From positions 13,676,644-13,740,643 of the forward strand of contig CM120643.1 of assembly GCA_051362555.1 (NCBI GenBank): 64,000 nucleotides of DNA, in the 5' to 3' direction. A program made the position numbers and the translations under genes. Positions 19,612-44,300 of this stretch are shown here, in pieces (positions within the stretch are counted from its first letter, which is position 1; each line of letters begins with the position of its first letter). The notes under the pieces were generated by a model that ran no database searches, had not been told where the DNA came from, and saw nothing but the letters and a program-made list of their open reading frames with translations. Source of the stretch: Lingula anatina. Taxonomy: Eukaryota; Animalia; Brachiopoda.

Positions 19612-19627
19612 GGCCCTGAAAAGGGCC
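19612..19627 (-). terminator. Histone-type mRNA 3' stem-loop downstream of the 209-aa ORF (present after all nine ORF copies)
   Basis: Reverse complement AAAAAC-GGCCCTTTTCAGGGCC-ACCCA. Confidence 0.8.
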
Positions 19628-19664
19628 GTTTTTTTCCGAGGACGTAGAAGCAGTGGCTTCTATT

Positions 19665-22237: not shown

Positions 22238-22867
22238 TTACAGTGTAGTTTTCTTGGCTGAGGTTAGTCTTCGTTTCACTTTGCTGGCTAGCACGCGGCT
22301 CTTCTTCTTGTCCTTCATGGCGAGAATGAGGAGTCTCATTTGCTCCATGATCTGGTTGTTTGTGGTCGTTGAAGTAGAGGGTTGGTTTCCTGGCGTGTAC
22401 ACGCCGTGGATGTTGAAGTGCTCTTCCGCCCTGGATTCCCTCTCTTCTGCCTTTGCTAAGCTTTCCTTAGCTTTGTCTACGAAAGCTTGCGTGTGGGCCT
22501 CGATCGCGGATTTAAGCTCTGTTGCGGCCTTGTCTTGTATGTTGATCATTGCTGCCAGAAGGATGTCGTCATCAGGGCACCCCCTGAAGTCTACACGGCA
22601 TCTGACATGGTGGGCGTTGTTGCTGAGTTGTGTGAGCATGTGGTCTGCCCAGTCAGAGCAGCCTTTCAGGTAAGCTTTTGCTCTGACGACTTCGTCGTGG
22701 TAGGGGTTGCCGTTGACTCCTGGGGGGCCGGCTGTAATTGGCGCCGGTCTCTTGGGGATTCTCCCCCTGGGTGGTGCAGTGCTATGCCAGTTTTTTGATT
22801 CCATATTTCTAGGTTTTTTCCATTCCCTAGGAGATCGTTTTCCTCTGATACTTGTTTGATGATACAT
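22238..22867 (-). CDS. 209-aa element-encoded protein, copy 2
   Basis: Translation identical to copy 1. Confidence 0.7.
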   Translation of the reverse strand: MYHQTSIRGKRSPREWKKPRNMESKNWHSTAPPRGRIPKRPAPITAGPPGVNGNPYHDEVVRAKAYLKGCSDWADHMLTQLSNNAHHVRCRVDFRGCPDDDILLAAMINIQDKAATELKSAIEAHTQAFVDKAKESLAKAEERESRAEEHFNIHGVYTPGNQPSTSTTTNNQIMEQMRLLILAMKDKKKSRVLASKVKRRLTSAKKTTL

Positions 22868-24810
22868 AGTGAGCGCGTTGTGAAAGAAATTGCTGTATTG
22901 CCAGACTTATGCCTTCCATTGAGAGTGTGCTGCTTTAAGTATACACCCTGCTGAGGGGAGCACCGACGTTAAGGAGCTATGTGGTGTTGTGTGCTTCCCG
23001 TTGATTCTAAAAGTGTGTCATTAAGGAGCTTTGTGATTGGCTGATTGTCAAGCCATTGTCCGGTGTCTTATGTCTTGACTATTCAAGAATGTATGCACAG
23101 AATCCCCCGACAAGTGTAAATTTTGGTTTTAGTGGTTGTTTGTCAGGTTTTCTTGGTTATTACTATTGTTCCCTAGTGAGTAATAGGAACGTAGTTGTCT
23201 CGCCTACGTGGTATGTGATTATCATTATCATATGTCCGTGTATTATGGTACATAGATCATTTTGTTCCTTGTGATCCGTAGGTTAAGGCGTGTTCCGATA
23301 AAGCAGAAAAAACCCCGTCACGCCAGTACCCAAAACACTAGCTACAAAGTAACCAGTGTTAAGGGACGGTTCCCGGTTCGGACAGTCCCACATTGCGGCC
23401 GGCCCCAGGGCCAAATAGCTTAAGTGTTGGGGGTGGTGGGCTCATGACCTAGTTAGATTCCACTTTACCAGAATAACACGATTCAGAGCTGGGCCTCTGA
23501 GGACGTGTATTTTTACAGCGCCCCTTGCAGAGTAGACAGCGGCTCTTAGAGTGTGTTAGGCTTTTCGCCTTTATTATGAGAACCACTTGTCTTTGATAGG
23601 AAGGTAGGTGTCTCGCCTGCCTGGTATGAGATACATAGTCATTTATATATGTAGGGTGCCCTGAAAAGGACATTCCGTGCTGAGTAGAGAGCGACTCTTA
23701 GAGTGTGTTAGGCTTCTCGCCTTTATTATAGGGAAAGAACGTCTTTATAAGAGAGTAGGTGTCTCGCCTACTTCGTATGAGATTTATAGATACCGATCTA
23801 CACTGGGGGCCCTGAAAAGGGCATTTCGTGATTGGCACAATAGAGGCGTCTCGCCTGTCGAGGGAAGGGGGAGGGTGGACTGGTTGCAGAAAGCGCTTTT
23901 CGGTCAACAAGTGACCTTCATCAGCTGCAGAGTCCGATTAATAAAAAAAAGGAAAAATTTAGGGACGTAGGGGCTGGTAAGCAAAGGTGTCTCGCCTTTG
24001 TTTAGTAAGTTTTCATCAATGGTGTCTCGCCATTGTGAATGATACGGGCCATCTCGGCTTTTAAGTATCATGCTTTGTTTAGTGATTTTCATCAATGGTG
24101 TCTCGCCATTGTGAATGATACGAGCCATCTCGGCTTTATAGTATCATGCTTGATCACAAGTGTCTCGCTTGTGTCAAAGTGGACGGTATGAATCGAGCGT
24201 GTGAATGGCTCAAGAGTCGGAGGTCGACTGAGGATTTGTTGAAATTGTGTCAAATCGAGATCGAGGCCGCGATCTGATTGGTTGTTTCAGTTATGAGTTT
24301 TGATTGGCTGTTCTCGTGGTGTATCTTGATCCTATCTGTTTAGATGTAGTTTATTTGGTTTCATTTTTGGCAAGGTATTTTAACCTCGGATCAAATTTAT
24401 TAGTATTCTTATGCTGTGCATTTGCGTGTTAACACTGAATTTTCATTTGCTAGGATGGTCTGTATAGGTTTCGGGCACCTCTTTTAATTTTGGAAGGCTT
24501 TCTCCTTGTTGCTTATAAATAAACTGAGATATCATCTCGCCTTTTATTTGCGATGTTTGTGTCTTATAAGTCGATTGTGCCCTGTAAGTGTTTAAAATTT
24601 GGTCTAAATGAGATTATGGCATTTTGCTTTATCTCCAGAATGACTTTTCTTTTCTTTATTGATTATTAATAAGTGTGGGGAAGGCATCTCGCCTTTTATT
24701 TGCATTATTGCGCTCTATTTGAACATTCAGGTTTAGCTTTTCCTGGTAGAAATGGGTGGCCCTGAAAAGGGCCGTTTTTTTCCGAGGACGTAGAAGCAGT
24801 GGCTTCTATT

Positions 24811-25440
24811 TTACAGTGTAGTTTTCTTGGCTGAGGTTAGTCTTCGTTTCACTTTGCTGGCTAGCACGCGGCTCTTCTTCTTGTCCTTCATGGCGAGAAT
24901 GAGGAGTCTCATTTGCTCCATGATCTGGTTGTTTGTGGTCGTTGAAGTAGAGGGTTGGTTTCCTGGCGTGTACACGCCGTGGATGTTGAAGTGCTCTTCC
25001 GCCCTGGATTCCCTCTCTTCTGCCTTTGCTAAGCTTTCCTTAGCTTTGTCTACGAAAGCTTGCGTGTGGGCCTCGATCGCGGATTTAAGCTCTGTTGCGG
25101 CCTTGTCTTGTATGTTGATCATTGCTGCCAGAAGGATGTCGTCATCAGGGCACCCCCTGAAGTCTACACGGCATCTGACATGGTGGGCGTTGTTGCTGAG
25201 TTGTGTGAGCATGTGGTCTGCCCAGTCAGAGCAGCCTTTCAGGTAAGCTTTTGCTCTGACGACTTCGTCGTGGTAGGGGTTGCCGTTGACTCCTGGGGGG
25301 CCGGCTGTAATTGGCGCCGGTCTCTTGGGGATTCTCCCCCTGGGTGGTGCAGTGCTATGCCAGTTTTTTGATTCCATATTTCTAGGTTTTTTCCATTCCC
25401 TAGGAGATCGTTTTCCTCTGATACTTGTTTGATGATACAT
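24811..25440 (-). CDS. 209-aa element-encoded protein, copy 3
   Basis: Translation identical to copy 1. Confidence 0.7.
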   Translation of the reverse strand: MYHQTSIRGKRSPREWKKPRNMESKNWHSTAPPRGRIPKRPAPITAGPPGVNGNPYHDEVVRAKAYLKGCSDWADHMLTQLSNNAHHVRCRVDFRGCPDDDILLAAMINIQDKAATELKSAIEAHTQAFVDKAKESLAKAEERESRAEEHFNIHGVYTPGNQPSTSTTTNNQIMEQMRLLILAMKDKKKSRVLASKVKRRLTSAKKTTL

Positions 25441-27383
25441 AGTGAGCGCGTTGTGAAAGAAATTGCTGTATTGCCAGACTTATGCCTTCCATTGAGAGTG
25501 TGCTGCTTTAAGTATACACCCTGCTGAGGGGAGCACCGACGTTAAGGAGCTATGTGGTGTTGTGTGCTTCCCGTTGATTCTAAAAGTGTGTCATTAAGGA
25601 GCTTTGTGATTGGCTGATTGTCAAGCCATTGTCCGGTGTCTTATGTCTTGACTATTCAAGAATGTATGCACAGAATCCCCCGACAAGTGTAAATTTTGGT
25701 TTTAGTGGTTGTTTGTCAGGTTTTCTTGGTTATTACTATTGTTCCCTAGTGAGTAATAGGAACGTAGTTGTCTCGCCTACGTGGTATGTGATTATCATTA
25801 TCATATGTCCGTGTATTATGGTACATAGATCATTTTGTTCCTTGTGATCCGTAGGTTAAGGCGTGTTCCGATAAAGCAGAAAAAACCCCGTCACGCCAGT
25901 ACCCAAAACACTAGCTACAAAGTAACCAGTGTTAAGGGACGGTTCCCGGTTCGGACAGTCCCACATTGCGGCCGGCCCCAGGGCCAAATAGCTTAAGTGT
26001 TGGGGGTGGTGGGCTCATGACCTAGTTAGATTCCACTTTACCAGAATAACACGATTCAGAGCTGGGCCTCTGAGGACGTGTATTTTTACAGCGCCCCTTG
26101 CAGAGTAGACAGCGGCTCTTAGAGTGTGTTAGGCTTTTCGCCTTTATTATGAGAACCACTTGTCTTTGATAGGAAGGTAGGTGTCTCGCCTGCCTGGTAT
26201 GAGATACATAGTCATTTATATATGTAGGGTGCCCTGAAAAGGACATTCCGTGCTGAGTAGAGAGCGACTCTTAGAGTGTGTTAGGCTTCTCGCCTTTATT
26301 ATAGGGAAAGAACGTCTTTATAAGAGAGTAGGTGTCTCGCCTACTTCGTATGAGATTTATAGATACCGATCTACACTGGGGGCCCTGAAAAGGGCATTTC
26401 GTGATTGGCACAATAGAGGCGTCTCGCCTGTCGAGGGAAGGGGGAGGGTGGACTGGTTGCAGAAAGCGCTTTTCGGTCAACAAGTGACCTTCATCAGCTG
26501 CAGAGTCCGATTAATAAGAAAAAGGAAAAATTTAGGGACGTAGGGGCTGGTAAGCAAAGGTGTCTCGCCTTTGTTTAGTAAGTTTTCATCAATGGTGTCT
26601 CGCCATTGTGAATGATACGGGCCATCTCGGCTTTTAAGTATCATGCTTTGTTTAGTGATTTTCATCAATGGTGTCTCGCCATTGTGAATGATACGAGCCA
26701 TCTCGGCTTTATAGTATCATGCTTGATCACAAGTGTCTCGCTTGTGTCAAAGTGGACGGTATGAATCGAGCGTGTGAATGGCTCAAGAGTCGGAGGTCGA
26801 CTGAGGATTTGTTGAAATTGTGTCAAATCGAGATCGAGGCCGCGATCTGATTGGTTGTTTCAGTTATGAGTTTTGATTGGCTGTTCTCGTGGTGTATCTT
26901 GATCCTATCTGTTTAGATGTAGTTTATTTGGTTTCATTTTTGGCAAGGTATTTTAACCTCGGATCAAATTTATTAGTATTCTTATGCTGTGCATTTGCGT
27001 GTTAACACTGAATTTTCATTTGCTAGGATGGTCTGTATAGGTTTCGGGCACCTCTTTTAATTTTGGAAGGCTTTCTCCTTGTTGCTTATAAATAAACTGA
27101 GATATCATCTCGCCTTTTATTTGCGATGTTTGTGTCTTATAAGTCGATTGTGCCCTGTAAGTGTTTAAAATTTGGTCTAAATGAGATTATGGCATTTTGC
27201 TTTATCTCCAGAATGACTTTTCTTTTCTTTATTGATTATTAATAAGTGTGGGGAAGGCATCTCGCCTTTTATTTGCATTATTGCGCTCTATTTGAACATT
27301 CAGGTTTAGCTTTTCCTGGTAGAAATGGGTGGCCCTGAAAAGGGCCGTTTTTTTCCGAGGACGTAGAAGCAGTGGCTTCTATT

Positions 27384-28013
27384 TTACAGTGTAGTTTTCT
27401 TGGCTGAGGTTAGTCTTCGTTTCACTTTGCTGGCTAGCACGCGGCTCTTCTTCTTGTCCTTCATGGCGAGAATGAGGAGTCTCATTTGCTCCATGATCTG
27501 GTTGTTTGTGGTCGTTGAAGTAGAGGGTTGGTTTCCTGGCGTGTACACGCCGTGGATGTTGAAGTGCTCTTCCGCCCTGGATTCCCTCTCTTCTGCCTTT
27601 GCTAAGCTTTCCTTAGCTTTGTCTACGAAAGCTTGCGTGTGGGCCTCGATCGCGGATTTAAGCTCTGTTGCGGCCTTGTCTTGTATGTTGATCATTGCTG
27701 CCAGAAGGATGTCGTCATCAGGGCACCCCCTGAAGTCTACACGGCATCTGACATGGTGGGCGTTGTTGCTGAGTTGTGTGAGCATGTGGTCTGCCCAGTC
27801 AGAGCAGCCTTTCAGGTAAGCTTTTGCTCTGACGACTTCGTCGTGGTAGGGGTTGCCGTTGACTCCTGGGGGGCCGGCTGTAATTGGCGCCGGTCTCTTG
27901 GGGATTCTCCCCCTGGGTGGTGCAGTGCTATGCCAGTTTTTTGATTCCATATTTCTAGGTTTTTTCCATTCCCTAGGAGATCGTTTTCCTCTGATACTTG
28001 TTTGATGATACAT
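27384..28013 (-). CDS. 209-aa element-encoded protein, copy 4
   Basis: Translation identical to copy 1. Confidence 0.7.
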   Translation of the reverse strand: MYHQTSIRGKRSPREWKKPRNMESKNWHSTAPPRGRIPKRPAPITAGPPGVNGNPYHDEVVRAKAYLKGCSDWADHMLTQLSNNAHHVRCRVDFRGCPDDDILLAAMINIQDKAATELKSAIEAHTQAFVDKAKESLAKAEERESRAEEHFNIHGVYTPGNQPSTSTTTNNQIMEQMRLLILAMKDKKKSRVLASKVKRRLTSAKKTTL

Positions 28014-30289
28014 AGTGAGCGCGTTGTGAAAGAAATTGCTGTATTGCCAGACTTATGCCTTCCATTGAGAGTGTGCTGCTTTAAGTATACACCCTGCTGA
28101 GGGGAGCACCGACGTTAAGGAGCTATGTGGTGTTGTGTGCTTCCCGTTGATTCTAAAAGTGTGTCATTAAGGAGCTTTGTGATTGGCTGATTGTCAAGCC
28201 ATTGTCCGGTGTCTTATGTCTTGACTATTCAAGAATGTATGCACAGAATCCCCCGACAAGTGTAAATTTTGGTTTTAGTGGTTGTTTGTCAGGTTTTCTT
28301 GGTTATTACTATTGTTCCCTAGTGAGTAATAGGAACGTAGTTGTCTCGCCTACGTGGTATGTGATTATCATTATCATATGTCCGTGTATTATGGTACATA
28401 GATCATTTTGTTCCTTGTGATCCGTAGGTTAAGGCGTGTTCCGATAAAGCAGAAAAAACCCCGTCACGCCAGTACCCAAAACACTAGCTACAAAGTAACC
28501 AGTGTTAAGGGACGGTTCCCGGTTCGGACAGTCCCACATTGCGGCCGGCCCCAGGGCCAAATAGCTTAAGTGTTGGGGGTGGTGGGCTCATGACCTAGTT
28601 AGATTCCACTTTACCAGAATAACACGATTCAGAGCTGGGCCTCTGAGGACGTGTATTTTTACAGCGCCCCTTGCAGAGTAGACAGCGGCTCTTAGAGTGT
28701 GTTAGGCTTTTCGCCTTTATTATGAGAACCACTTGTCTTTGATAGGAAGGTAGGTGTCTCGCCTGCCTGGTATGAGATACATAGTCATTTATATATGTAG
28801 GGTGCCCTGAAAAGGACATTCCGTGCTGAGTAGAGAGCGACTCTTAGAGTGTGTTAGGCTTCTCGCCTTTATTATAGGGAAAGAACGTCTTTATAAGAGA
28901 GTAGGTGTCTCGCCTACTTCGTATGAGATTTATAGATACCGATCTACACTGGGGGCCCTGAAAAGGGCATTTCGTGATTGGCACAATAGAGGCGTCTCGC
29001 CTGTCGAGGGAAGGGGGAGGGTGGACTGGTTGCAGAAAGCGCTATTCGGTCAACAAGTGACCTTCATCAGCTGCAGAGTCCGATTAATAAAAAAAAGGAA
29101 AAATTTAGGGACGTAGGGGCTGGTAAGCAAAGGTGTCTCGCCTTTGTTTAGTAAGTTTTCATCAATGGTGTCTCGCCATTGTGAATGATACGGGCCATCT
29201 CGGCTTTTAAGTATCATGCTTTGTTTAGTGATTTTCATCAATGGTGTCTCGCCATTGTGAATGATACGAGCCATCTCGGCTTTATAGTATCATGCTTGAT
29301 CACAAGTGTCTCGCTTGTGTCAAAGTGGACGGTATGAATCGAGCGTGTGAATGGCTCAAGAGTCGGAGGTCGACTGAGGATTTGTTGAAATTGTGTCAAA
29401 TCGAGATCGAGGCCGCGATCTGATTGGTTGTTTCAGTTATGAGTTTTGATTGGCTGTTCTCGTGGTGTATCTTGATCCTATCTGTTTAGATGTAGTTTAT
29501 TTGGTTTCATTTTTGGCAAGGTATTTTAACCTCGGATCAAATTTATTAGTATTCTTATGCTGTGCATTTGCGTGTTAACACTGAATTTTCATTTGCTAGG
29601 ATGGTCTGTATAGGTTTCGGGCACCTCTTTTAATTTTGGAAGGCTTTCTCCTTGTTGCTTATAAATAAACTGAGATATCATCTCGCCTTTTATTTGCGAT
29701 GTTTGTGTCCCTCAAGTGTTGGGGGTGGTGGGCTCATGACCTAGTTAGATTCCACTTTACCAGAATAACACGATTCAGAGCTGGGCCTCTGAGGACGTGT
29801 ATTTTTACAGCGCCCCTTGCAGAGTAGACAGCGGCTCTTAGAGTGTGTTAGGCTTTTCGCCTTTATTATGAGAACCACTTGTCTTTGATAGGAAGGTAGG
29901 TGTCTCGCCTGCCTGGTATGAGATACATAGTCATTTATATATGTAGGGTGCCCTGAAAAGGACATTCCGTGCTGAGTAGAGAGCGACTCTTATAGTGTGT
30001 TAGGCTTCTCGCCTTTATTATAGGGAAAGAACGTCTTTATAAGAGAGTAGGTGTCTCGCCTACTTCGTATGAGATTTATAGATACCGATCTACACTGGGG
30101 GCCCTGAAAAGGGCATTTCGTGATTGGCACAATAGAGGCGTCTCGCCTGTCGAGGGAAGGGGGAGGGTGGACTGGTTGCAGAAAGCGCTTTTCGGTCAAC
30201 CCTCAGCAGGGTGTATACTTAAAGCAGCACACTCTCAATGGAAGGCATAAGTCTGGCAATACAGCAATTTCTTTCACAACGCGCTCACT

Positions 30290-30919
30290 ATGTATCATCA
30301 AACAAGTATCAGAGGAAAACGATCTCCTAGGGAATGGAAAAAACCTAGAAATATGGAATCAAAAAACTGGCATAGCACTGCACCACCCAGGGGGAGAATC
30401 CCCAAGAGACCGGCGCCAATTACAGCCGGCCCCCCAGGAGTCAACGGCAACCCCTACCACGACGAAGTCGTCAGAGCAAAAGCTTACCTGAAAGGCTGCT
30501 CTGACTGGGCAGACCACATGCTCACACAACTCAGCAACAACGCCCACCATGTCAGATGCCGTGTAGACTTCAGGGGGTGCCCTGATGACGACATCCTTCT
30601 GGCAGCAATGATCAACATACAAGACAAGGCCGCAACAGAGCTTAAATCCGCGATCGAGGCCCACACGCAAGCTTTCGTAGACAAAGCTAAGGAAAGCTTA
30701 GCAAAGGCAGAAGAGAGGGAATCCAGGGCGGAAGAGCACTTCAACATCCACGGCGTGTACACGCCAGGAAACCAACCCTCTACTTCAACGACCACAAACA
30801 ACCAGATCATGGAGCAAATGAGACTCCTCATTCTCGCCATGAAGGACAAGAAGAAGAGCCGCGTGCTAGCCAGCAAAGTGAAACGAAGACTAACCTCAGC
30901 CAAGAAAACTACACTGTAA
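30290..30919 (+). CDS. 209-aa element-encoded protein, copy 5 (in an inverted partial unit lacking the upstream CCAAT box)
   Basis: Translation identical to copy 1. Confidence 0.65.
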   Translation: MYHQTSIRGKRSPREWKKPRNMESKNWHSTAPPRGRIPKRPAPITAGPPGVNGNPYHDEVVRAKAYLKGCSDWADHMLTQLSNNAHHVRCRVDFRGCPDDDILLAAMINIQDKAATELKSAIEAHTQAFVDKAKESLAKAEERESRAEEHFNIHGVYTPGNQPSTSTTTNNQIMEQMRLLILAMKDKKKSRVLASKVKRRLTSAKKTTL

Positions 30920-30956
30920 AATAGAAGCCACTGCTTCTACGTCCTCGGAAAAAAAC

Positions 30957-30995
30957 GGCCCTTTTCAGGGCCACCCATTTCTACCAGGAAAAGCT
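30957..30995 (+). terminator. Histone-type 3' stem-loop plus candidate purine-rich histone downstream element (also at 38846 and 41419)
   Basis: GGCCCTTTTCAGGGCC at 30957-30972, ACCCA at 30973-30977, CAGGAAAAGCT at 30985-30995. Confidence 0.8.
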
Positions 30996-31794
30996 AAACC
31001 TGAATGTTCAAATAGAGCGCAATAATGCAAATAAAAGGCGAGATGCCTTCCCCACACTTATTAATAATCAATAAAGAAAAGAAAAGTCATTCTGGAGATA
31101 AAGCAAAATGCCATAATCTCATTTAGACCAAATTTTAAACACTTACAGGGCACAATCGACTTATAAGACACAAACATCGCAAATAAAAGGCGAGATGATA
31201 TCTCAGTTTATTTATAAGCAACAAGGAGAAAGCCTTCCAAAATTAAAAGAGGTGCCCGAAACCTATACAGACCATCCTAGCAAATGAAAATTCAGTGTTA
31301 ACACGCAAATGCACAGCATAAGAATACTAATAAATTTGATCCGAGGTTAAAATACCTTGCCAAAAATGAAACCAAATAAACTACATCTAAACAGATAGGA
31401 TCAAGATACACCACGAGAACAGCCAATCAAAACTCATAACTGAAACAACCAATCAGATCGCGGCCTCGATCTCGATTTGACACAATTTCAACAAATCCTC
31501 AGTCGACCTCCGACTCTTGAGCCATTCACACGCTCGATTCATACCGTCCACTTTGACACAAGCGAGACACTTGTGATCAAGCATGATACTATAAAGCCGA
31601 GATGGCTCGTATCATTCACAATGGCGAGACACCATTGATGAAAATCACTAAACAAAGCATGATACTTAAAAGCCGAGATGGCCCGTATCATTCACAATGG
31701 CGAGACACCATTGATGAAAACTTACTAAACAAAGGCGAGACACCTTTGCTTACCAGCCCCTACGTCCCTAAATTTTTCCTTTTTTTTATTAATC

Positions 31795-31853
31795 GGACTC
31801 TGCAGCTGATGAAGGTCACTTGTTGACCGAAAAGCGCTTTCTGCAACCAGTCC
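31795..31853 (+). ncRNA. Minimal type I hammerhead ribozyme (further plus-strand copies at 39684-39742, 42257-42315, 43041-43099)
   Basis: Stem I TGCAG(31801-05)/CTGCA(31841-45) extended by GGACT/AGTCC; core CTGATGA 31806-12; stem II GGTCA/TGACC; GAAA; palindromic stem III AAGCGCTT; predicted cut after 31840. Confidence 0.88.
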
Positions 31854-33261
31854 ACCCTCCCCCTTCCCTTATAAGTGTTGGGGGTGGTGGGCTCATGACC
31901 TAGTTAGATTCCACTTTACCAGAATAACACGATTCAGAGCTGGGCCTCTGAGGACGTGTATTTTTACAGCGCCCCTTGCAGAGTAGACAGCGGCTCTTAG
32001 AGTGTGTTAGGCTTTTCGCCTTTATTATGAGAACCACTTGTCTTTGATAGGAAGGTAGGTGTCTCGCCTGCCTGGTATGAGATACATAGTCATTTATATA
32101 TGTAGGGTGCCCTGAAAAGGACATTCCGTGCTGAGTAGAGAGCGACTCTTAGAGTGTGTTAGGCTTCTCGCCTTTATTATAGGGAAAGAACGTCTTTATA
32201 AGAGAGTAGGTGTCTCGCCTACTTCGTATGAGATTTATAGATACCGATCTACACTGGGGGCCCTGAAAAGGGCATTTCGTGATTGGCACAATAGAGGCGT
32301 CTCGCCTGTCGAGGGAAGGGGGAGGGTGGACTGGTTGCAGAAAGCGCTTTTCGGTCAACAAGTGACCTTCATCAGCTGCAGAGTCCGATTAATAAAAAAA
32401 AGGAAAAATTTAGGGACGTAGGGGCTGGTAAGCAAAGGTGTCTCGCCTTTGTTTAGTAAGTTTTCATCAATGGTGTCTCGCCATTGTGAATGATACGGGC
32501 CATCTCGGCTTTTAAGTATCATGCTTTGTTTAGTGATTTTCATCAATGGTGTCTCGCCATTGTGAATGATACGAGCCATCTCGGCTTTATAGTATCATGC
32601 TTGATCACAAGTGTCTCGCTTGTGTCAAAGTGGACGGTATGAATCGAGCGTGTGAATGGCTCAAGAGTCGGAGGTCGACTGAGGATTTGTTGAAATTGTG
32701 TCAAATCGAGATCGAGGCCGCGATCTGATTGGTTGTTTCAGTTATGAGTTTTGATTGGCTGTTCTCGTGGTGTATCTTGATCCTATCTGTTTAGATGTAG
32801 TTTATTTGGTTTCATTTTTGGCAAGGTATTTTAACCTCGGATCAAATTTATTAGTATTCTTATGCTGTGCATTTGCGTGTTAACACTGAATTTTCATTTG
32901 CTAGGATGGTCTGTATAGGTTTCGGGCACCTCTTTTAATTTTGGAAGGCTTTCTCCTTGTTGCTTATAAATAAACTGAGATATCATCTCGCCTTTTATTT
33001 GCGATGTTTGTGTCTTATAAGTCGATTGTGCCCTGTAAGTGTTTAAAATTTGGTCTAAATGAGATTATGGCATTTTGCTTTATCTCCAGAATGACTTTTC
33101 TTTTCTTTATTGATTATTAATAAGTGTGGGGAAGGCATCTCGCCTTTTATTTGCATTATTGCGCTCTATTTGAACATTCAGGTTTAGCTTTTCCTGGTAG
33201 AAATGGGTGGCCCTGAAAAGGGCCGTTTTTTTCCGAGGACGTAGAAGCAGTGGCTTCTATT

Positions 33262-33891
33262 TTACAGTGTAGTTTTCTTGGCTGAGGTTAGTCTTCGTTT
33301 CACTTTGCTGGCTAGCACGCGGCTCTTCTTCTTGTCCTTCATGGCGAGAATGAGGAGTCTCATTTGCTCCATGATCTGGTTGTTTGTGGTCGTTGAAGTA
33401 GAGGGTTGGTTTCCTGGCGTGTACACGCCGTGGATGTTGAAGTGCTCTTCCGCCCTGGATTCCCTCTCTTCTGCCTTTGCTAAGCTTTCCTTAGCTTTGT
33501 CTACGAAAGCTTGCGTGTGGGCCTCGATCGCGGATTTAAGCTCTGTTGCGGCCTTGTCTTGTATGTTGATCATTGCTGCCAGAAGGATGTCGTCATCAGG
33601 GCACCCCCTGAAGTCTACACGGCATCTGACATGGTGGGCGTTGTTGCTGAGTTGTGTGAGCATGTGGTCTGCCCAGTCAGAGCAGCCTTTCAGGTAAGCT
33701 TTTGCTCTGACGACTTCGTCGTGGTAGGGGTTGCCGTTGACTCCTGGGGGGCCGGCTGTAATTGGCGCCGGTCTCTTGGGGATTCTCCCCCTGGGTGGTG
33801 CAGTGCTATGCCAGTTTTTTGATTCCATATTTCTAGGTTTTTTCCATTCCCTAGGAGATCGTTTTCCTCTGATACTTGTTTGATGATACAT
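33262..33891 (-). CDS. 209-aa element-encoded protein, copy 6
   Basis: Translation identical to copy 1. Confidence 0.7.
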   Translation of the reverse strand: MYHQTSIRGKRSPREWKKPRNMESKNWHSTAPPRGRIPKRPAPITAGPPGVNGNPYHDEVVRAKAYLKGCSDWADHMLTQLSNNAHHVRCRVDFRGCPDDDILLAAMINIQDKAATELKSAIEAHTQAFVDKAKESLAKAEERESRAEEHFNIHGVYTPGNQPSTSTTTNNQIMEQMRLLILAMKDKKKSRVLASKVKRRLTSAKKTTL

Positions 33892-35834
33892 AGTGAGCGC
33901 GTTGTGAAAGAAATTGCTGTATTGCCAGACTTATGCCTTCCATTGAGAGTGTGCTGCTTTAAGTATACACCCTGCTGAGGGGAGCACCGACGTTAAGGAG
34001 CTATGTGGTGTTGTGTGCTTCCCGTTGATTCTAAAAGTGTGTCATTAAGGAGCTTTGTGATTGGCTGATTGTCAAGCCATTGTCCGGTGTCTTATGTCTT
34101 GACTATTCAAGAATGTATGCACAGAATCCCCCGACAAGTGTAAATTTTGGTTTTAGTGGTTGTTTGTCAGGTTTTCTTGGTTATTACTATTGTTCCCTAG
34201 TGAGTAATAGGAACGTAGTTGTCTCGCCTACGTGGTATGTGATTATCATTATCATATGTCCGTGTATTATGGTACATAGATCATTTTGTTCCTTGTGATC
34301 CGTAGGTTAAGGCGTGTTCCGATAAAGCAGAAAAAACCCCGTCACGCCAGTACCCAAAACACTAGCTACAAAGTAACCAGTGTTAAGGGACGGTTCCCGG
34401 TTCGGACAGTCCCACATTGCGGCCGGCCCCAGGGCCAAATAGCTTAAGTGTTGGGGGTGGTGGGCTCATGACCTAGTTAGATTCCACTTTACCAGAATAA
34501 CACGATTCAGAGCTGGGCCTCTGAGGACGTGTATTTTTACAGCGCCCCTTGCAGAGTAGACAGCGGCTCTTAGAGTGTGTTAGGCTTTTCGCCTTTATTA
34601 TGAGAACCACTTGTCTTTGATAGGAAGGTAGGTGTCTCGCCTGCCTGGTATGAGATACATAGTCATTTATATATGTAGGGTGCCCTGAAAAGGACATTCC
34701 GTGCTGAGTAGAGAGCGACTCTTAGAGTGTGTTAGGCTTCTCGCCTTTATTATAGGGAAAGAACGTCTTTATAAGAGAGTAGGTGTCTCGCCTACTTCGT
34801 ATGAGATTTATAGATACCGATCTACACTGGGGGCCCTGAAAAGGGCATTTCGTGATTGGCACAATAGAGGCGTCTCGCCTGTCGAGGGAAGGGGGAGGGT
34901 GGACTGGTTGCAGAAAGCGCTTTTCGGTCAACAAGTGACCTTCATCAGCTGCAGAGTCCGATTAATAAAAAAAAGGAAAAATTTAGGGACGTAGGGGCTG
35001 GTAAGCAAAGGTGTCTCGCCTTTGTTTAGTAAGTTTTCATCAATGGTGTCTCGCCATTGTGAATGATACGGGCCATCTCGGCTTTTAAGTATCATGCTTT
35101 GTTTAGTGATTTTCATCAATGGTGTCTCGCCATTGTGAATGATACGAGCCATCTCGGCTTTATAGTATCATGCTTGATCACAAGTGTCTCGCTTGTGTCA
35201 AAGTGGACGGTATGAATCGAGCGTGTGAATGGCTCAAGAGTCGGAGGTCGACTGAGGATTTGTTGAAATTGTGTCAAATCGAGATCGAGGCCGCGATCTG
35301 ATTGGTTGTTTCAGTTATGAGTTTTGATTGGCTGTTCTCGTGGTGTATCTTGATCCTATCTGTTTAGATGTAGTTTATTTGGTTTCATTTTTGGCAAGGT
35401 ATTTTAACCTCGGATCAAATTTATTAGTATTCTTATGCTGTGCATTTGCGTGTTAACACTGAATTTTCATTTGCTAGGATGGTCTGTATAGGTTTCGGGC
35501 ACCTCTTTTAATTTTGGAAGGCTTTCTCCTTGTTGCTTATAAATAAACTGAGATATCATCTCGCCTTTTATTTGCGATGTTTGTGTCTTATAAGTCGATT
35601 GTGCCCTGTAAGTGTTTAAAATTTGGTCTAAATGAGATTATGGCATTTTGCTTTATCTCCAGAATGACTTTTCTTTTCTTTATTGATTATTAATAAGTGT
35701 GGGGAAGGCATCTCGCCTTTTATTTGCATTATTGCGCTCTATTTGAACATTCAGGTTTAGCTTTTCCTGGTAGAAATGGGTGGCCCTGAAAAGGGCCGTT
35801 TTTTTCCGAGGACGTAGAAGCAGTGGCTTCTATT

Positions 35835-36464
35835 TTACAGTGTAGTTTTCTTGGCTGAGGTTAGTCTTCGTTTCACTTTGCTGGCTAGCACGCGGCTCTT
35901 CTTCTTGTCCTTCATGGCGAGAATGAGGAGTCTCATTTGCTCCATGATCTGGTTGTTTGTGGTCGTTGAAGTAGAGGGTTGGTTTCCTGGCGTGTACACG
36001 CCGTGGATGTTGAAGTGCTCTTCCGCCCTGGATTCCCTCTCTTCTGCCTTTGCTAAGCTTTCCTTAGCTTTGTCTACGAAAGCTTGCGTGTGGGCCTCGA
36101 TCGCGGATTTAAGCTCTGTTGCGGCCTTGTCTTGTATGTTGATCATTGCTGCCAGAAGGATGTCGTCATCAGGGCACCCCCTGAAGTCTACACGGCATCT
36201 GACATGGTGGGCGTTGTTGCTGAGTTGTGTGAGCATGTGGTCTGCCCAGTCAGAGCAGCCTTTCAGGTAAGCTTTTGCTCTGACGACTTCGTCGTGGTAG
36301 GGGTTGCCGTTGACTCCTGGGGGGCCGGCTGTAATTGGCGCCGGTCTCTTGGGGATTCTCCCCCTGGGTGGTGCAGTGCTATGCCAGTTTTTTGATTCCA
36401 TATTTCTAGGTTTTTTCCATTCCCTAGGAGATCGTTTTCCTCTGATACTTGTTTGATGATACAT
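35835..36464 (-). CDS. 209-aa element-encoded protein, copy 7
   Basis: Translation identical to copy 1. Confidence 0.7.
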   Translation of the reverse strand: MYHQTSIRGKRSPREWKKPRNMESKNWHSTAPPRGRIPKRPAPITAGPPGVNGNPYHDEVVRAKAYLKGCSDWADHMLTQLSNNAHHVRCRVDFRGCPDDDILLAAMINIQDKAATELKSAIEAHTQAFVDKAKESLAKAEERESRAEEHFNIHGVYTPGNQPSTSTTTNNQIMEQMRLLILAMKDKKKSRVLASKVKRRLTSAKKTTL

Positions 36465-38003
36465 AGTGAGCGCGTTGTGAAAGAAATTGCTGTATTGCCA
36501 GACTTATGCCTTCCATTGAGAGTGTGCTGCTTTAAGTATACACCCTGCTGAGGGGAGCACCGACGTTAAGGAGCTATGTGGTGTTGTGTGCTTCCCGTTG
36601 ATTCTAAAAGTGTGTCATTAAGGAGCTTTGTGATTGGCTGATTGTCAAGCCATTGTCCGGTGTCTTATGTCTTGACTATTCAAGAATGTATGCACAGAAT
36701 CCCCCGACAAGTGTAAATTTTGGTTTTAGTGGTTGTTTGTCAGGTTTTCTTGGTTATTACTATTGTTCCCTAGTGAGTAATAGGAACGTAGTTGTCTCGC
36801 CTACGTGGTATGTGATTATCATTATCATATGTCCGTGTATTATGGTACATAGATCATTTTGTTCCTTGTGATCCGTAGGTTAAGGCGTGTTCCGATAAAG
36901 CAGAAAAAACCCCGTCACGCCAGTACCCAAAACACTAGCTACAAAGTAACCAGTGTTAAGGGACGGTTCCCGGTTCGGACAGTCCCACATTGCGGCCGGC
37001 CCCAGGGCCAAATAGCTTAAGTGTTGGGGGTGGTGGGCTCATGACCTAGTTAGATTCCACTTTACCAGAATAACACGATTCAGAGCTGGGCCTCTGAGGA
37101 CGTGTATTTTTACAGCGCCCCTTGCAGAGTAGACAGCGGCTCTTAGAGTGTGTTAGGCTTTTCGCCTTTATTATGAGAACCACTTGTCTTTGATAGGAAG
37201 GTAGGTGTCTCGCCTGCCTGGTATGAGATACATAGTCATTTATATATGTAGGGTGCCCTGAAAAGGACATTCCGTGCTGAGTAGAGAGCGACTCTTAGAG
37301 TGTGTTAGGCTTCTCGCCTTTATTATAGGGAAAGAACGTCTTTATAAGAGAGTAGGTGTCTCGCAGCACGGAATGTCCTTTTCAGGGCACCCTACATATA
37401 TAAATGACTATGTATCTCATACCAGGCAGGCGAGACACCTACCTTCCTATCAAAGACAAGTGGTTCTCATAATAAAGGCGAAAAGCCTAACACACTCTAA
37501 GAGCCGCTGTCTACTCTGCAAGGGGCGCTGTAAAAATACACGTCCTCAGAGGCCCAGCTCTGAATCGTGTTATTCTGGTAAAGTGGAATCTAACTAGGTC
37601 ATGAGCCCACCACCCCCAACACTTAAGCTATTTGGCCCTGGGGCCGGCCGCAATGTGGGACTGTCCGAACCGGGAACCGTCCCTTAACACTGGTTACTTT
37701 GTAGCTAGTGTTTTGGGTACTGGCGTGACGGGGTTTTTTCTGCTTTATCGGAACACGCCTTAACCTACGGATCACAAGGAACAAAATGATCTATGTACCA
37801 TAATACACGGACATATGATAATGATAATCACATACCACGTAGGCGAGACAACTACGTTCCTATTACTCACTAGGGAACAATAGTAATAACCAAGAAAACC
37901 TGACAAACAACCACTAAAACCAAAATTTACACTTGTCGGGGGATTCTGTGCATACATTCTTGAATAGTCAAGACATAAGACACCGGACAATGGCTTGACA
38001 ATC

Positions 38004-38112
38004 AGCCAATCACAAAGCTCCTTAATGACACACTTTTAGAATCAACGGGAAGCACACAACACCACATAGCTCCTTAACGTCGGTGCTCCCCTCAGCAGGG
38101 TGTATACTTAAA
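38004..38112 (+). promoter_or_regulatory. Candidate Pol II promoter of the element ORF (CCAAT box plus TATA-like motif)
   Basis: AGCCAATCA at 38004-38012, AGCTCCTTAA twice, TATACTTAAA at 38103-38112, about 70 nt before the ATG at 38179; motif match only. Confidence 0.4.
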
Positions 38113-38178
38113 GCAGCACACTCTCAATGGAAGGCATAAGTCTGGCAATACAGCAATTTCTTTCACAACGCGCTCACT

Positions 38179-38808
38179 ATGTATCATCAAACAAGTATCA
38201 GAGGAAAACGATCTCCTAGGGAATGGAAAAAACCTAGAAATATGGAATCAAAAAACTGGCATAGCACTGCACCACCCAGGGGGAGAATCCCCAAGAGACC
38301 GGCGCCAATTACAGCCGGCCCCCCAGGAGTCAACGGCAACCCCTACCACGACGAAGTCGTCAGAGCAAAAGCTTACCTGAAAGGCTGCTCTGACTGGGCA
38401 GACCACATGCTCACACAACTCAGCAACAACGCCCACCATGTCAGATGCCGTGTAGACTTCAGGGGGTGCCCTGATGACGACATCCTTCTGGCAGCAATGA
38501 TCAACATACAAGACAAGGCCGCAACAGAGCTTAAATCCGCGATCGAGGCCCACACGCAAGCTTTCGTAGACAAAGCTAAGGAAAGCTTAGCAAAGGCAGA
38601 AGAGAGGGAATCCAGGGCGGAAGAGCACTTCAACATCCACGGCGTGTACACGCCAGGAAACCAACCCTCTACTTCAACGACCACAAACAACCAGATCATG
38701 GAGCAAATGAGACTCCTCATTCTCGCCATGAAGGACAAGAAGAAGAGCCGCGTGCTAGCCAGCAAAGTGAAACGAAGACTAACCTCAGCCAAGAAAACTA
38801 CACTGTAA
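38179..38808 (+). CDS. 209-aa element-encoded protein, copy 8
   Basis: Translation identical to copy 1. Confidence 0.7.
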   Translation: MYHQTSIRGKRSPREWKKPRNMESKNWHSTAPPRGRIPKRPAPITAGPPGVNGNPYHDEVVRAKAYLKGCSDWADHMLTQLSNNAHHVRCRVDFRGCPDDDILLAAMINIQDKAATELKSAIEAHTQAFVDKAKESLAKAEERESRAEEHFNIHGVYTPGNQPSTSTTTNNQIMEQMRLLILAMKDKKKSRVLASKVKRRLTSAKKTTL

Positions 38809-40751
38809 AATAGAAGCCACTGCTTCTACGTCCTCGGAAAAAAACGGCCCTTTTCAGGGCCACCCATTTCTACCAGGAAAAGCTAAACCTGAATGTTCAA
38901 ATAGAGCGCAATAATGCAAATAAAAGGCGAGATGCCTTCCCCACACTTATTAATAATCAATAAAGAAAAGAAAAGTCATTCTGGAGATAAAGCAAAATGC
39001 CATAATCTCATTTAGACCAAATTTTAAACACTTACAGGGCACAATCGACTTATAAGACACAAACATCGCAAATAAAAGGCGAGATGATATCTCAGTTTAT
39101 TTATAAGCAACAAGGAGAAAGCCTTCCAAAATTAAAAGAGGTGCCCGAAACCTATACAGACCATCCTAGCAAATGAAAATTCAGTGTTAACACGCAAATG
39201 CACAGCATAAGAATACTAATAAATTTGATCCGAGGTTAAAATACCTTGCCAAAAATGAAACCAAATAAACTACATCTAAACAGATAGGATCAAGATACAC
39301 CACGAGAACAGCCAATCAAAACTCATAACTGAAACAACCAATCAGATCGCGGCCTCGATCTCGATTTGACACAATTTCAACAAATCCTCAGTCGACCTCC
39401 GACTCTTGAGCCATTCACACGCTCGATTCATACCGTCCACTTTGACACAAGCGAGACACTTGTGATCAAGCATGATACTATAAAGCCGAGATGGCTCGTA
39501 TCATTCACAATGGCGAGACACCATTGATGAAAATCACTAAACAAAGCATGATACTTAAAAGCCGAGATGGCCCGTATCATTCACAATGGCGAGACACCAT
39601 TGATGAAAACTTACTAAACAAAGGCGAGACACCTTTGCTTACCAGCCCCTACGTCCCTAAATTTTTCCTTTTTTTTATTAATCGGACTCTGCAGCTGATG
39701 AAGGTCACTTGTTGACCGAAAAGCGCTTTCTGCAACCAGTCCACCCTCCCCCTTCCCTCGACAGGCGAGACGCCTCTATTGTGCCAATCACGAAATGCCC
39801 TTTTCAGGGCCCCCAGTGTAGATCGGTATCTATAAATCTCATACGAAGTAGGCGAGACACCTACTCTCTTATAAAGACGTTCTTTCCCTATAATAAAGGC
39901 GAGAAGCCTAACACACTCTAAGAGTCGCTCTCTACTCAGCACGGAATGTCCTTTTCAGGGCACCCTACATATATAAATGACTATGTATCTCATACCAGGC
40001 AGGCGAGACACCTACCTTCCTATCAAAGACAAGTGGTTCTCATAATAAAGGCGAAAAGCCTAACACACTCTAAGAGCCGCTGTCTACTCTGCAAGGGGCG
40101 CTGTAAAAATACACGTCCTCAGAGGCCCAGCTCTGAATCGTGTTATTCTGGTAAAGTGGAATCTAACTAGGTCATGAGCCCACCACCCCCAACACTTAAG
40201 CTATTTGGCCCTGGGGCCGGCCGCAATGTGGGACTGTCCGAACCGGGAACCGTCCCTTAACACTGGTTACTTTGTAGCTAGTGTTTTGGGTACTGGCGTG
40301 ACGGGGTTTTTTCTGCTTTATCGGAACACGCCTTAACCTACGGATCACAAGGAACAAAATGATCTATGTACCATAATACACGGACATATGATAATGATAA
40401 TCACATACCACGTAGGCGAGACAACTACGTTCCTATTACTCACTAGGGAACAATAGTAATAACCAAGAAAACCTGACAAACAACCACTAAAACCAAAATT
40501 TACACTTGTCGGGGGATTCTGTGCATACATTCTTGAATAGTCAAGACATAAGACACCGGACAATGGCTTGACAATCAGCCAATCACAAAGCTCCTTAATG
40601 ACACACTTTTAGAATCAACGGGAAGCACACAACACCACATAGCTCCTTAACGTCGGTGCTCCCCTCAGCAGGGTGTATACTTAAAGCAGCACACTCTCAA
40701 TGGAAGGCATAAGTCTGGCAATACAGCAATTTCTTTCACAACGCGCTCACT

Positions 40752-41381
40752 ATGTATCATCAAACAAGTATCAGAGGAAAACGATCTCCTAGGGAATGGA
40801 AAAAACCTAGAAATATGGAATCAAAAAACTGGCATAGCACTGCACCACCCAGGGGGAGAATCCCCAAGAGACCGGCGCCAATTACAGCCGGCCCCCCAGG
40901 AGTCAACGGCAACCCCTACCACGACGAAGTCGTCAGAGCAAAAGCTTACCTGAAAGGCTGCTCTGACTGGGCAGACCACATGCTCACACAACTCAGCAAC
41001 AACGCCCACCATGTCAGATGCCGTGTAGACTTCAGGGGGTGCCCTGATGACGACATCCTTCTGGCAGCAATGATCAACATACAAGACAAGGCCGCAACAG
41101 AGCTTAAATCCGCGATCGAGGCCCACACGCAAGCTTTCGTAGACAAAGCTAAGGAAAGCTTAGCAAAGGCAGAAGAGAGGGAATCCAGGGCGGAAGAGCA
41201 CTTCAACATCCACGGCGTGTACACGCCAGGAAACCAACCCTCTACTTCAACGACCACAAACAACCAGATCATGGAGCAAATGAGACTCCTCATTCTCGCC
41301 ATGAAGGACAAGAAGAAGAGCCGCGTGCTAGCCAGCAAAGTGAAACGAAGACTAACCTCAGCCAAGAAAACTACACTGTAA
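40752..41381 (+). CDS. 209-aa element-encoded protein, copy 9
   Basis: Translation identical to copy 1. Confidence 0.7.
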   Translation: MYHQTSIRGKRSPREWKKPRNMESKNWHSTAPPRGRIPKRPAPITAGPPGVNGNPYHDEVVRAKAYLKGCSDWADHMLTQLSNNAHHVRCRVDFRGCPDDDILLAAMINIQDKAATELKSAIEAHTQAFVDKAKESLAKAEERESRAEEHFNIHGVYTPGNQPSTSTTTNNQIMEQMRLLILAMKDKKKSRVLASKVKRRLTSAKKTTL

Positions 41382-44300
41382 AATAGAAGCCACTGCTTCT
41401 ACGTCCTCGGAAAAAAACGGCCCTTTTCAGGGCCACCCATTTCTACCAGGAAAAGCTAAACCTGAATGTTCAAATAGAGCGCAATAATGCAAATAAAAGG
41501 CGAGATGCCTTCCCCACACTTATTAATAATCAATAAAGAAAAGAAAAGTCATTCTGGAGATAAAGCAAAATGCCATAATCTCATTTAGACCAAATTTTAA
41601 ACACTTACAGGGCACAATCGACTTATAAGACACAAACATCGCAAATAAAAGGCGAGATGATATCTCAGTTTATTTATAAGCAACAAGGAGAAAGCCTTCC
41701 AAAATTAAAAGAGGTGCCCGAAACCTATACAGACCATCCTAGCAAATGAAAATTCAGTGTTAACACGCAAATGCACAGCATAAGAATACTAATAAATTTG
41801 ATCCGAGGTTAAAATACCTTGCCAAAAATGAAACCAAATAAACTACATCTAAACAGATAGGATCAAGATACACCACGAGAACAGCCAATCAAAACTCATA
41901 ACTGAAACAACCAATCAGATCGCGGCCTCGATCTCGATTTGACACAATTTCAACAAATCCTCAGTCGACCTCCGACTCTTGAGCCATTCACACGCTCGAT
42001 TCATACCGTCCACTTTGACACAAGCGAGACACTTGTGATCAAGCATGATACTATAAAGCCGAGATGGCTCGTATCATTCACAATGGCGAGACACCATTGA
42101 TGAAAATCACTAAACAAAGCATGATACTTAAAAGCCGAGATGGCCCGTATCATTCACAATGGCGAGACACCATTGATGAAAACTTACTAAACAAAGGCGA
42201 GACACCTTTGCTTACCAGCCCCTACGTCCCTAAATTTTTCCTTTTTTTTATTAATCGGACTCTGCAGCTGATGAAGGTCACTTGTTGACCGAAAAGCGCT
42301 TTCTGCAACCAGTCCACCCTCCCCCTTCCCTCGACAGGCGAGACGCCTCTATTGTGCCAATCACGAAATGCCCTTTTCAGGGCCCCCAGTGTAGATCGGT
42401 ATCTATAAATCTCATACGAAGTAGGCGAGACACCTACTCTCTTATAAAGACGTTCTTTCCCTATAATAAAGGCGAGAAGCCTAACACACTCTAAGAGTCG
42501 CTCTCTACTCAGCACGGAATGTCCTTTTCAGGGCACCCTACATATATAAATGACTATGTATCTCATACCAGGCAGGCGAGACACCTACCTTCCTATCAAA
42601 GACAAGTGGTTCTCATAATAAAGGCGAAAAGCCTAACACACTCTAAGAGCCGCTGTCTACTCTGCAAGGGGCGCTGTAAAAATACACGTCCTCAGAGGCC
42701 CAGCTCTGAATCGTGTTATTCTGGTAAAGTGGAATCTAACTAGGTCATGAGCCCACCACCCCCAACACATTTCACACGCTCGATTCATACCGTCCACTTT
42801 GACACAAGCGAGACACTTGTGATCAAGCATGATACTATAAAGCCGAGATGGCTCGTATCATTCACAATGGCGAGACACCATTGATGAAAATCACTAAACA
42901 AAGCATGATACTTAAAAGCCGAGATGGCCCGTATCATTCACAATGGCGAGACACCATTGATGAAAACTTACTAAACAAAGGCGAGACACCTTTGCTTACC
43001 AGCCCCTACGTCCCTAAATTTTTCCTTTTTTTTATTAATCGGACTCTGCAGCTGATGAAGGTCACTTGTTGACCGAAAAGCGCTTTCTGCAACCAGTCCA
43101 CCCTCCCCCTTCCCTCGACAGGCGAGACGCCTCTATTGTGCCAATCACGAAATGCCCTTTTCAGGGCCCCCAGTGTAGATCGGTATCTATAAATCTCATA
43201 CGAAGTAGGCGAGACACCTACTCTCTTATAAAGACGTTCTTTCCCTATAATAAAGGCGAGAAGCCTAACACACTCTAAGAGTCGCTCTCTACTCAGCACG
43301 GAATGTCCTTTTCAGGGCACCCTACATATATAAATGACTATGTATCTCATACCAGGCAGGCGAGACACCTACCTTCCTATCAAAGACAAGTGGTTCTCAT
43401 AATAAAGGCGAAAAGCCTAACACACTCTAAGAGCCGCTGTCTACTCTGCAAGGGGCGCTGTAAAAATACACGTCCTCAGAGGCCCAGCTCTGAATCGTGT
43501 TATTCTGGTAAAGTGGAATCTAACTAGGTCATGAGCCCACCACCCCCAACACAATGTTCAGCTGCTGTTTCATAGGAAAATTTTGCTCCCGGGACATCAT
43601 CCTCGGTCAATCTTACGAAGGAAACCGTTGGTGTCCCTTCCTTCGCCATTGAAATTCACCGTGCAGACTGCTGTTCTTGTCCGACTTCCGCGTTCAGCAG
43701 TGAACTCATTAATATGCATGAGATAGTAGTGACGCAATAGGTTGCTTCTCGCTATTACTGTGTCTCTGGCTGTGCAGAAACGGCATGTCGAACATATTTT
43801 GCTACAGTTACAAACAGGGCAAACTAGCGACTTGTTCTAGATCGCTCTAGTAAGAAAGCATAAGTGCGGCGCCCGGGCAAAACAATCAACTACCCGGTAT
43901 AACATTCATATCTTAGCGTTTACATATGACGCGCAAAGAGCTAAGTACATATGACGCGCAATGAGCTAAGCAATTAGCCTTAACAAAGTGGTCCGTTTTA
44001 AAACAACAACGAGAAAAAAGAACGCCTTGTCATAGTTATGAGACAAATCGCTTGCAACGTGCAACAAGGGGGATGGCTGACACTGTGGTCACACTACATG
44101 TTTATGTACGTTGAATTAACAGTCTTAGACATCGCCCAAAGAGGCAGGACTTACTATAGCCCTCAATCTATTGTTAAACGCGATCATTATCTGTTCTCAT
44201 GCAACCTTAAACAAAACCTAAGCAATAAGATTGTTAAATCAGATAAGTGATGTAAAATCATATAGGAAATTTACGTTAACGACGGAGACTTTCATTCGCA

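Follow-up and report, generated by a model that had tools for sequence, protein, structure and literature searches.

What a set of hairpins with one conserved loop does in the genome of the brachiopod Lingula anatina, on which strand the hairpins act and what, if anything, reads them are the questions raised by the 64,000-nt stretch of DNA analysed here (the window). The best explanation, which is put forward tentatively, is that the hairpins are plus-strand GNRA-type loops that a non-autonomous retroelement may use to recruit, in trans, the RT/endonuclease protein of a Penelope-like element. The features are listed in Table 1.

Hairpin array, loop class and strand

The hairpins belong to a 2573-bp unit that is repeated approximately 10 times within 17807-43552, in segments of 0.18, 4.44, 0.19, 0.65, 2.13, 2.10 and 0.30 units. 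The copies differ by four internal single-base differences and two differences at junctions across the whole insertion, and the element is a young 2.6-kb repeated element. An assembly artefact was rejected for the unit itself, since the unit is found at approximately 98.6% identity in another study. The insertion is flanked by four long intronless TRP-like ion-channel ORFs (5914-7821, 12597-14468 and 47730-49568 on the minus strand, 52903-54783 on the plus strand); both of the two ORFs that were searched against Pfam contain Ion_trans, and one has a weak ankyrin match. Additionally, 3.1 copies of a 160-bp tandem unit at 59969-60463, which we take to resemble a Helitron-derived non-autonomous repeat, adjoin short microsatellite-like stretches, and other tandem repeats lie at 58826-59439 (337 bp, 1.8 copies) and 62645-62985 (58 bp, 4.9 copies).

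Table 1. Coordinates of the insertion, the reference unit and the features within the unit
Feature	Position	Strand	Description or basis
Whole insertion, 25.7 kb	17807..43552		seven segments of the 2573-bp unit, tandem and inverted; element 3' ends point outward at both borders
Reference unit, 2573 bp	37624..40196	+	repeat comparison
C-GAGAC-A hairpin with G.A mismatch	37837..37857	+	lies 5' of the ORF; paralogous to 39847 and 40001
209-aa orphan ORF	38179..38808	+	N-terminus basic and disordered, C-terminus basic; a long helical hairpin is predicted at 57-154
Histone 3' stem-loop (stem 38846-38861), ACCCA and purine-rich HDE-like AGGAAAAG (38875-38882)	38841..38885	+	Rfam RF00032
C-GAGAT-G hairpin	38924..38938	+	immediately after AATAAA
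Duplicate loop motif, stem lost	39080..39086	+	copy 152 bp downstream
Six-hairpin cluster (39446, 39484, 39508, 39561, 39584, 39619)	39446..39637	+	5' of the hammerhead; includes the 76-bp duplication
Minimal type I hammerhead motif	39690..39734	+	sequence and regex; predicted cut after 39729
C-GAGAC-G hairpin	39763..39775	+	sequence
Two 151-bp modules, 78% alike	39789..40096	+	internal duplication
AC-rich fixed 3' end (...CCCCCAACAC)	40179..40195	+	six of seven segments end within unit positions 259-264

The reference unit contains 14 loops of the form C-GARAN-(G/A), all in a single orientation (plus) and 13 of them on stems. The loop letters are GAGAC in eight cases, GAGAT in four, and GAGAA and GAAAA in one each; seven loops are closed by C-G and seven by C.A, and AATAAA directly precedes four of the C-G-closed loops. 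The first-pass annotation had placed approximately 14 hairpins in 38920-40065. Every hairpin that it quoted is present at its position, and the figure of 14 holds for the loops of a unit, whereas that range contains 13 loops, 12 of them with stems; the fourteenth loop (37844) lies outside it, with a G.A mismatch followed by six Watson-Crick pairs, and the hairpin at 40001-40013 was missing from the earlier list. Each unit of the insertion carries the array, which is therefore not confined to the coordinates given.

A looser loop pattern matches 16 sites on the plus strand and none on the minus strand, and at least three Watson-Crick pairs outside the heptamer are found at 11 of the 16, compared with a mean of 0.058 (maximum 2) in 1000 dinucleotide shuffles and with none of the 57 sites that the same pattern matches in the flanks. 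The sites at 39717 (inside the hammerhead) and 39791 are not of the hairpin family and were excluded from the alignment of 14 rows, in which six of the seven stem pairs show a double-sided change; the covariation score was reached by none of 500 shuffles on either strand, and every slid control scored lower. The 14 hairpins did not all arise independently, in that duplications of 76, 151 and 152 bp within the unit collapse them to approximately seven groups, which were assigned by eye from these duplications. When one hairpin per group is taken, 32-35 of 42 cells are paired, compared with 22.5 after swapping of the arms (p <= 0.0012 over 48 choices). Additionally, the region 39424-39623 has a fold z of -3.5 on the plus strand and -5.6 on the minus strand.

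The earlier observation that unlike stems keep their pairing around a conserved loop is borne out by these results, and selection on structure is supported by the excess of stems over shuffles and by the covariation, which is covariation among paralogous hairpins of one element and not across family members. The hairpin array is real and structured, and it is probably functional. Rfam contains no family for the hairpins, the matches to narK and DUF805b being far under their cut-offs, and likenesses to REP/BIME, sarcin-ricin, Smaug and DNA GNA mini-hairpins were dropped because the loop consensus differs.

It is distinctly improbable that the hairpins have no protein reader and are either local folding or stabilising units, which would serve in GNRA-receptor docking, hammerhead insulation or the protection of uncapped RNA, or largely by-products of duplication. 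Half of the 14 were indeed copied by duplications of 76-152 bp and one hairpin has decayed, but approximately seven groups with unlike arms retain both the loop and the pairing. The surroundings of the hammerhead fold into short local stems that leave its stems I and II free, in line with such a role, whereas stability alone needs no five-base loop with a fixed G-A-R-A that is often closed by C.A.

The earlier analogy to GNRA-like pentaloops stands in one form and not in another. Pentaloops of the boxB type are GNRNA (PMC9830547), and the fifth loop base is A in only two of the 14 loops, whereas GNRA with a variable fifth base, a variant observed protein-bound in RNase MRP (PMC12550061), is matched by all 14. 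The Lingula loops share G-A-R-A plus an extra base on a short stem with the boxB loop and with the n5-n6 insertion of RNase MRP (PMC12550061, PMC9830547); they differ in that the extra base is the last one and not the fourth, in that half of them are C.A-closed and in that they are arrayed 14 times. Judged by its letters, the loop appears to fit GNRA plus an extruded fifth base and not the boxB form. A read variant at 39593 (nine reads, run X11) changes GAGA to GAAA and retains GNRA, and loops that break the consensus occur in two loose-end consensus reads, which are perhaps decayed copies.

The first-pass annotation had also cautioned that the C-A mismatch becomes a G-U pair on the antisense strand. 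The caveat is correct, and it rests mostly on the closing pair, which is C-G or U.G in all 14 cases on the minus strand; outside the closing column, A.C mismatches account for seven of 22 non-Watson-Crick cells, compared with approximately five expected from composition. In the 14-row alignment 84.7% of the cells are paired on the minus strand and 71.4% on the plus strand, the fold z is -3.8 versus -2.6 (20 shuffles), and the energies are lower on the minus strand for most hairpins.

These pairing data bear on the possibility, of low probability in our judgement, that the minus strand is the functional one and that the hairpins form Y-NUYUC-G loops there, in cDNA or antisense RNA, by which pausing, self-priming or the synthesis of the second strand would be guided. 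The regular alternation of the closing pair between C-G and U.G and the lower energies would agree with such a role, but the plus strand is A/C-rich, the A.C excess beyond the closing column is small and the seven C.A closures partly share ancestry. Antisense-type reads are present and antisense templates have been proposed for PLEs (PMC3846280), whereas a read variant at 39484 creates a G.U pair on the plus strand; the read variants point both ways. One segment of the insertion ends at the 39853 loop and another 5 nt before the 39763 hairpin, but the hairpins fill much of the region, so that two nearby junctions are unremarkable. The plus strand is favoured as the one on which the hairpins act, in view of the invariant letters of GNRA, the small A.C excess, and the hammerhead, ORF and histone stem-loop that this strand carries in addition to serving as the RT template.

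Hammerhead motif, 3' end and relatives

The hammerhead motif is found in each tandem unit and comprises stem I (TGCAG/CTGCA), the core CTGATGA, an extra A, stem II (GGTCA/TGACC), GAAA and the palindromic AAGCGCTT. The hammerheads described for metazoan PLEs are likewise minimal type I, with helix III palindromic and one additional base preceding stem II (PMC4209133). Rfam gives no match to the motif at 39690-39734. The predicted pairing energy is -33.3 kcal/mol for two copies together and -10.8 for one. A single change at core position A15.1 in one unit (29044) is the only ribozyme-core difference in the insertion. On the minus strand of the unit, a regex search found no hammerhead core and Rfam no ribozyme, a result that other ribozyme types could escape. 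The hammerhead pattern had no matches in metagenome contigs, nor had a two-hairpin pattern in viral contigs, these collections being mostly prokaryotic or viral. CTGATGA matches near 60086-60407 are part of the 160-bp repeat and were set aside.

Six segments have in common the 3' end ...CCCCCAACAC (40195), which is followed by AT-rich letters; both outer borders of the insertion are such ends, and relatives in other runs likewise break off at 40195. This AC-rich end would be the start of reverse transcription. The 5' ends of the segments vary. One 5'-truncated segment starts at 18277, within 1 nt of the predicted hammerhead cut, which suggests that cleaved RNA had served as template, and as many as five cut sites lie within the long segments, which is compatible with a template that is circular or that is an uncleaved multimer. 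No target site duplication is seen, the longest word common to the 30-nt flanks being 4 nt, and the optional 30-40-bp tail is absent in that both outer ends stop at the same base. The unit has no RT or GIY-YIG ORF: its stop-to-stop frames of at least 150 aa are the 209-aa ORF and the antisense frame of that ORF, with no Pfam hit.

In these features the element resembles endonuclease-positive (EN+) Penelope-like elements, whose minimal hammerhead has a palindromic helix III and, ahead of stem II, one unpaired base, and which form tandem and inverted 5'-truncated copies with a fixed AC-rich 3' end at AT-rich insertion sites (PMC11167929, PMC8557442, PMC4209133, PMC3846280). It differs from them in that it lacks the RT/GIY-YIG ORF, has a single 3' end instead of the 30-40-bp optional tail and shows no target site duplication. 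Identity as an autonomous PLE was rejected, given the missing RT/GIY-YIG ORF (compare PMC8557442, PMC6431247).

The unit is present whole or in part in 10 runs from four studies, and diverged copies are numerous in three genomic-size runs. In these three runs several contig joints place the hammerhead immediately after the first hairpins (near 39524-39534 to 39690-39695) or skip one 151-bp module, from which it appears that relatives keep hairpins beside the ribozyme while the number of modules varies; most of the joints are short-sided (19-30 letters; one 63) and are flagged as weak. A single 2605-nt contig in run X5 wraps round the unit with a 30-nt overlap and 36 differences (approximately 98.6% identical), and a tandem array gives the same picture. 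The assembly of run X5 is small (35 Mb) and contains almost none of the diverged copies, and this run may not be a whole-genome library. Contig depth is highest over three parts (the first cluster of hairpins, the hammerhead and the element's 3' end), but such depth cannot rank the parts and was left out of account.

RNA reads are few (110, 39, 19 and 78 of 8-12 million in four runs, 6-25% of each run having been read) and come from both strands. Three reads from the RNA runs cross the unit joint, which a tandem array would also produce, and read ends do not pile up at the hammerhead site or the stem-loop in the four runs, at least two of whose libraries are poly(A)-selected. Between 38226 and 38913 all reads, from three runs, have their first mate on the plus strand; provided that the libraries follow the usual stranded protocol, these reads run antisense to the ORF. 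An abundant sense mRNA finds no support in the RNA reads, though circular RNAs and transcripts with histone-type ends would be lost in poly(A) selection. The run index lists no RNA run containing the unit.

The 209-aa ORF and its histone-type end

The histone-type stem-loop behind the 209-aa ORF scores 38 bits against Rfam RF00032 (cut-off 34), and a stem-loop above this cut-off lies behind all nine ORF copies. The 26-nt histone element follows the stop codon at a distance of 32 nt, within the spacing of 25-60 nt described for such ends (10.64898/2026.10.14.759114; see also PMC6210712 for the features of histone ends), and a purine-rich element lies downstream, so that score, spacing and purine-rich element are all present. 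The resemblance to replication-dependent histone mRNA 3' ends (RF00032 and HDE) thus extends over the canonical stem-loop, the stop-codon spacing, ACCCA and the purine-rich element; the differences are that the Lingula stem-loop stands behind a non-histone mobile-element ORF and that two degenerate copies lie 3' of the ribozyme.

Each 151-bp module contains one of these degenerate histone-type stem-loops (39796-39811 and 39947-39962), a TATA-like box, a C-GAGAC-A hairpin (39847 and 40001) and AATAAA with a C-GARAA-G hairpin (39897 and 40049). The degenerate stem-loops keep the second G-C pair and the loop, stand without a purine-rich element, and in one case carry a plus-strand U.G change.

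The single relative of the 209-aa protein that was found is P0001, on a 1420-nt contig (32% identity, E 6e-7). The description of the protein as Arg-rich was overstated: it has 17 Arg in 209 residues, seven of them within residues 1-45, and most of this basic arm is absent from P0001, with which a short RIPKxP stretch alone is held in common. Since P0001 begins near this conserved stretch, the second ATG of the window protein (codon 22) may be the true start. Upstream of the ATG, CCAAT (38006) and a TATA-like box (38103) are present. Eight of 16 substitutions in the ORF are synonymous, compared with 22-27% expected (P 0.012-0.044), the 16 being a partial, selected sample drawn from the 40 best-supported of 635 rows; on this comparison the ORF looks constrained.

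The protein has no Pfam hit and no PDB sequence hit, no hit in a search of 5.8 billion sequences and none in the Atlas, and a profile search returned P0001 only. A search among longer proteins found none that matches, which is weak evidence, and in metagenome contigs (mostly prokaryotic or viral collections) 101 pattern matches to the protein profile gave none that was confirmed. The single-sequence fold is poor (pLDDT 57), and a fold from two sequences reaches pLDDT 64.8, with a predicted long helical hairpin at 57-154 that has a pLDDT of 75-87 over most of its length. Fold searches matched only generic helical hairpins (best Z 9.0) and no RNA-binding fold, a result that excludes no family.

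The main rival of the helper reading draws on this protein: the hairpins would be plus-strand sites for the element's own 209-aa product, whose basic arms would read the loops while the coiled coil oligomerises, so that the RNA is coated or compacted in the manner of a nucleocapsid. We regard this as rather doubtful. The apparent constraint on the ORF and the existence of P0001 count in its favour, and the basic N- and C-termini with the helical hairpin between them would suit it, as would 14 sites for a multivalent coat, but the basic arm shares only the RIPKxP stretch with P0001. Basic peptides read GNRA-like pentaloops (PMC12550061), whereas the Lingula loops are not of the boxB type and the predicted fold resembles no RNA-binding fold in the searches above.

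A proposed Penelope-like helper and related systems

The reading that we prefer, with due reserve, remains the one in which the hairpins load a Penelope-like protein supplied in trans. What is observed is the covarying hairpin array, together with a hammerhead motif, a fixed 3' end, the tandem and inverted layout and an ORF with a histone-type end signal; every binding step is one that we infer. The array would be transcribed, and unit-length RNA, which may circularise, would be cut from the transcript by the hammerhead, which would probably act as a dimer or be assisted by a protein. The helper protein would bind the hairpins lying to either side of the ribozyme, at 130-750 nt on the 5' side of the AC-rich site, nick AT-rich DNA, start cDNA at ...CCCCCAACAC and extend it over up to 4.4 units, and reverse transcription would restart at the same site after every truncation or strand switch. 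Local duplications would have multiplied the hairpins, which may be an advantage for a parasite competing over scarce helper protein. Apart from this cycle, a non-polyadenylated mRNA would be produced through SLBP/U7 processing at the stem-loop, and it would encode the 209-aa protein, which is probably an accessory RNP component.

The stems with their covariation, the one-way orientation of the loops on the template strand and the GNRA letters with a free fifth base point to this reading, as do the PLE-type footprint (the common 3' end in six of seven segments, the AT-rich letters after it and the one 5' end at the predicted cut) and the hairpins kept beside the ribozyme in relatives. This footprint matches what is reported in vitro for an Anolis PLE, which nicks AT-rich DNA and then initiates at an AC-rich site, with hammerhead cleavage assisted by the protein (PMC11167929). 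Against the helper reading count the better pairing of the minus strand, the consensus-breaking loops, the sparse reads from two strands, and the RNA required by that one PLE studied in vitro, which is approximately 170 nt, with no such hairpin array described in the text consulted (PMC11167929). The first-pass annotation had named a helper RT among the possible binders; the element context, with a Penelope-type footprint and no RT of its own, fits this, while the role as binder is conjectural.

Among known systems, animal non-LTR retrozymes share with the Lingula element the tandem units, one type I hammerhead in each and the lack of an RT, and PLE mobilisation and circular RNA have been proposed for them; they are described as non-coding, at 170-400 nt with a consensus of up to 972 bp (PMC7229834; bioRxiv 10.64898/2026.07.22.740005). 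The Lingula unit differs in its 2573 nt, 209-aa ORF, histone-type end signal and hairpin array. It is more than twice the largest size given for any retrozyme (1116 nt) in Table 1 of PMC8781251, and because it exceeds approximately 1 kb and carries an ORF, it is not filed as a plain animal non-LTR retrozyme. To judge from sequence comparison, the element behaves like a Penelope-mobilised retrozyme and would be an unusual coding variant of PLE-dependent ribozyme elements.

Cargo capture between pLTRs (the Adineta NRPS, PMC3846280) and the non-autonomous PLE derivative MRC1 (PMC8557442) offer a further likeness, in that unrelated sequence rides on cis-acting PLE ends in head-to-tail multicopy insertions; the Lingula cargo differs in that it belongs permanently to a family of many copies and consists of an orphan gene that brings its own processing signal, not of a one-off copy of a host gene. 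In the open-licence part of PMC and in bioRxiv, no paper was found that combines Penelope-like, hammerhead and histone stem-loop, and none on the layout of the element, as judged by title or the start of the abstract.

In HDV, the mRNA end signal lies upstream of the ribozyme, and the Lingula end signal has the same placement. Ribozyviruses (HDV-like) are also similar in combining a ribozyme-bearing unit with one ORF of approximately 200 aa that is basic and helical (PMC8781251). The Lingula element differs in being genome-integrated and branched (its circular MFE fold is 53% paired with 57 hairpin loops and is not rod-like), in having the hammerhead motif on one strand and in an ORF without Pfam or PDB sequence match. 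As regards a delta-antigen homologue, the ORF has no Pfam or PDB sequence hit, and the fold searches match generic helical hairpins only, which excludes no family. A bolder version of the own-protein idea, which we consider unlikely, is a protein-coding retrozyme: a 2.57-kb hammerhead circle with its own nucleocapsid-like protein, whose mRNA would be made through the host histone pathway in S phase, which would coat itself through the 14 GNRA-like sites and which would be copied as a rolling circle by a Penelope RT.

The element is of interest for the choice of RNA by PLE proteins and for the copying of retrozymes, to which it contributes a candidate signal that recurs and covaries, a single fixed start site and runs of several units. 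In the papers cited here retrozymes are described as non-coding and shorter than approximately 1.1 kb, and the class would be broadened by a 2.6-kb member whose ORF is under constraint. A parasite would turn out to use the SLBP/U7 pathway if a mobile gene that is not a histone gene ended in the histone manner. A coding 2.6-kb retrozyme is also relevant to the proposal that HDV-like agents arose from retrozymes (PMC8781251): if the self-coating coding retrozyme were true, it would be a living example of an evolutionarily proposed step from non-coding retrozymes to ribozyvirus-like agents.
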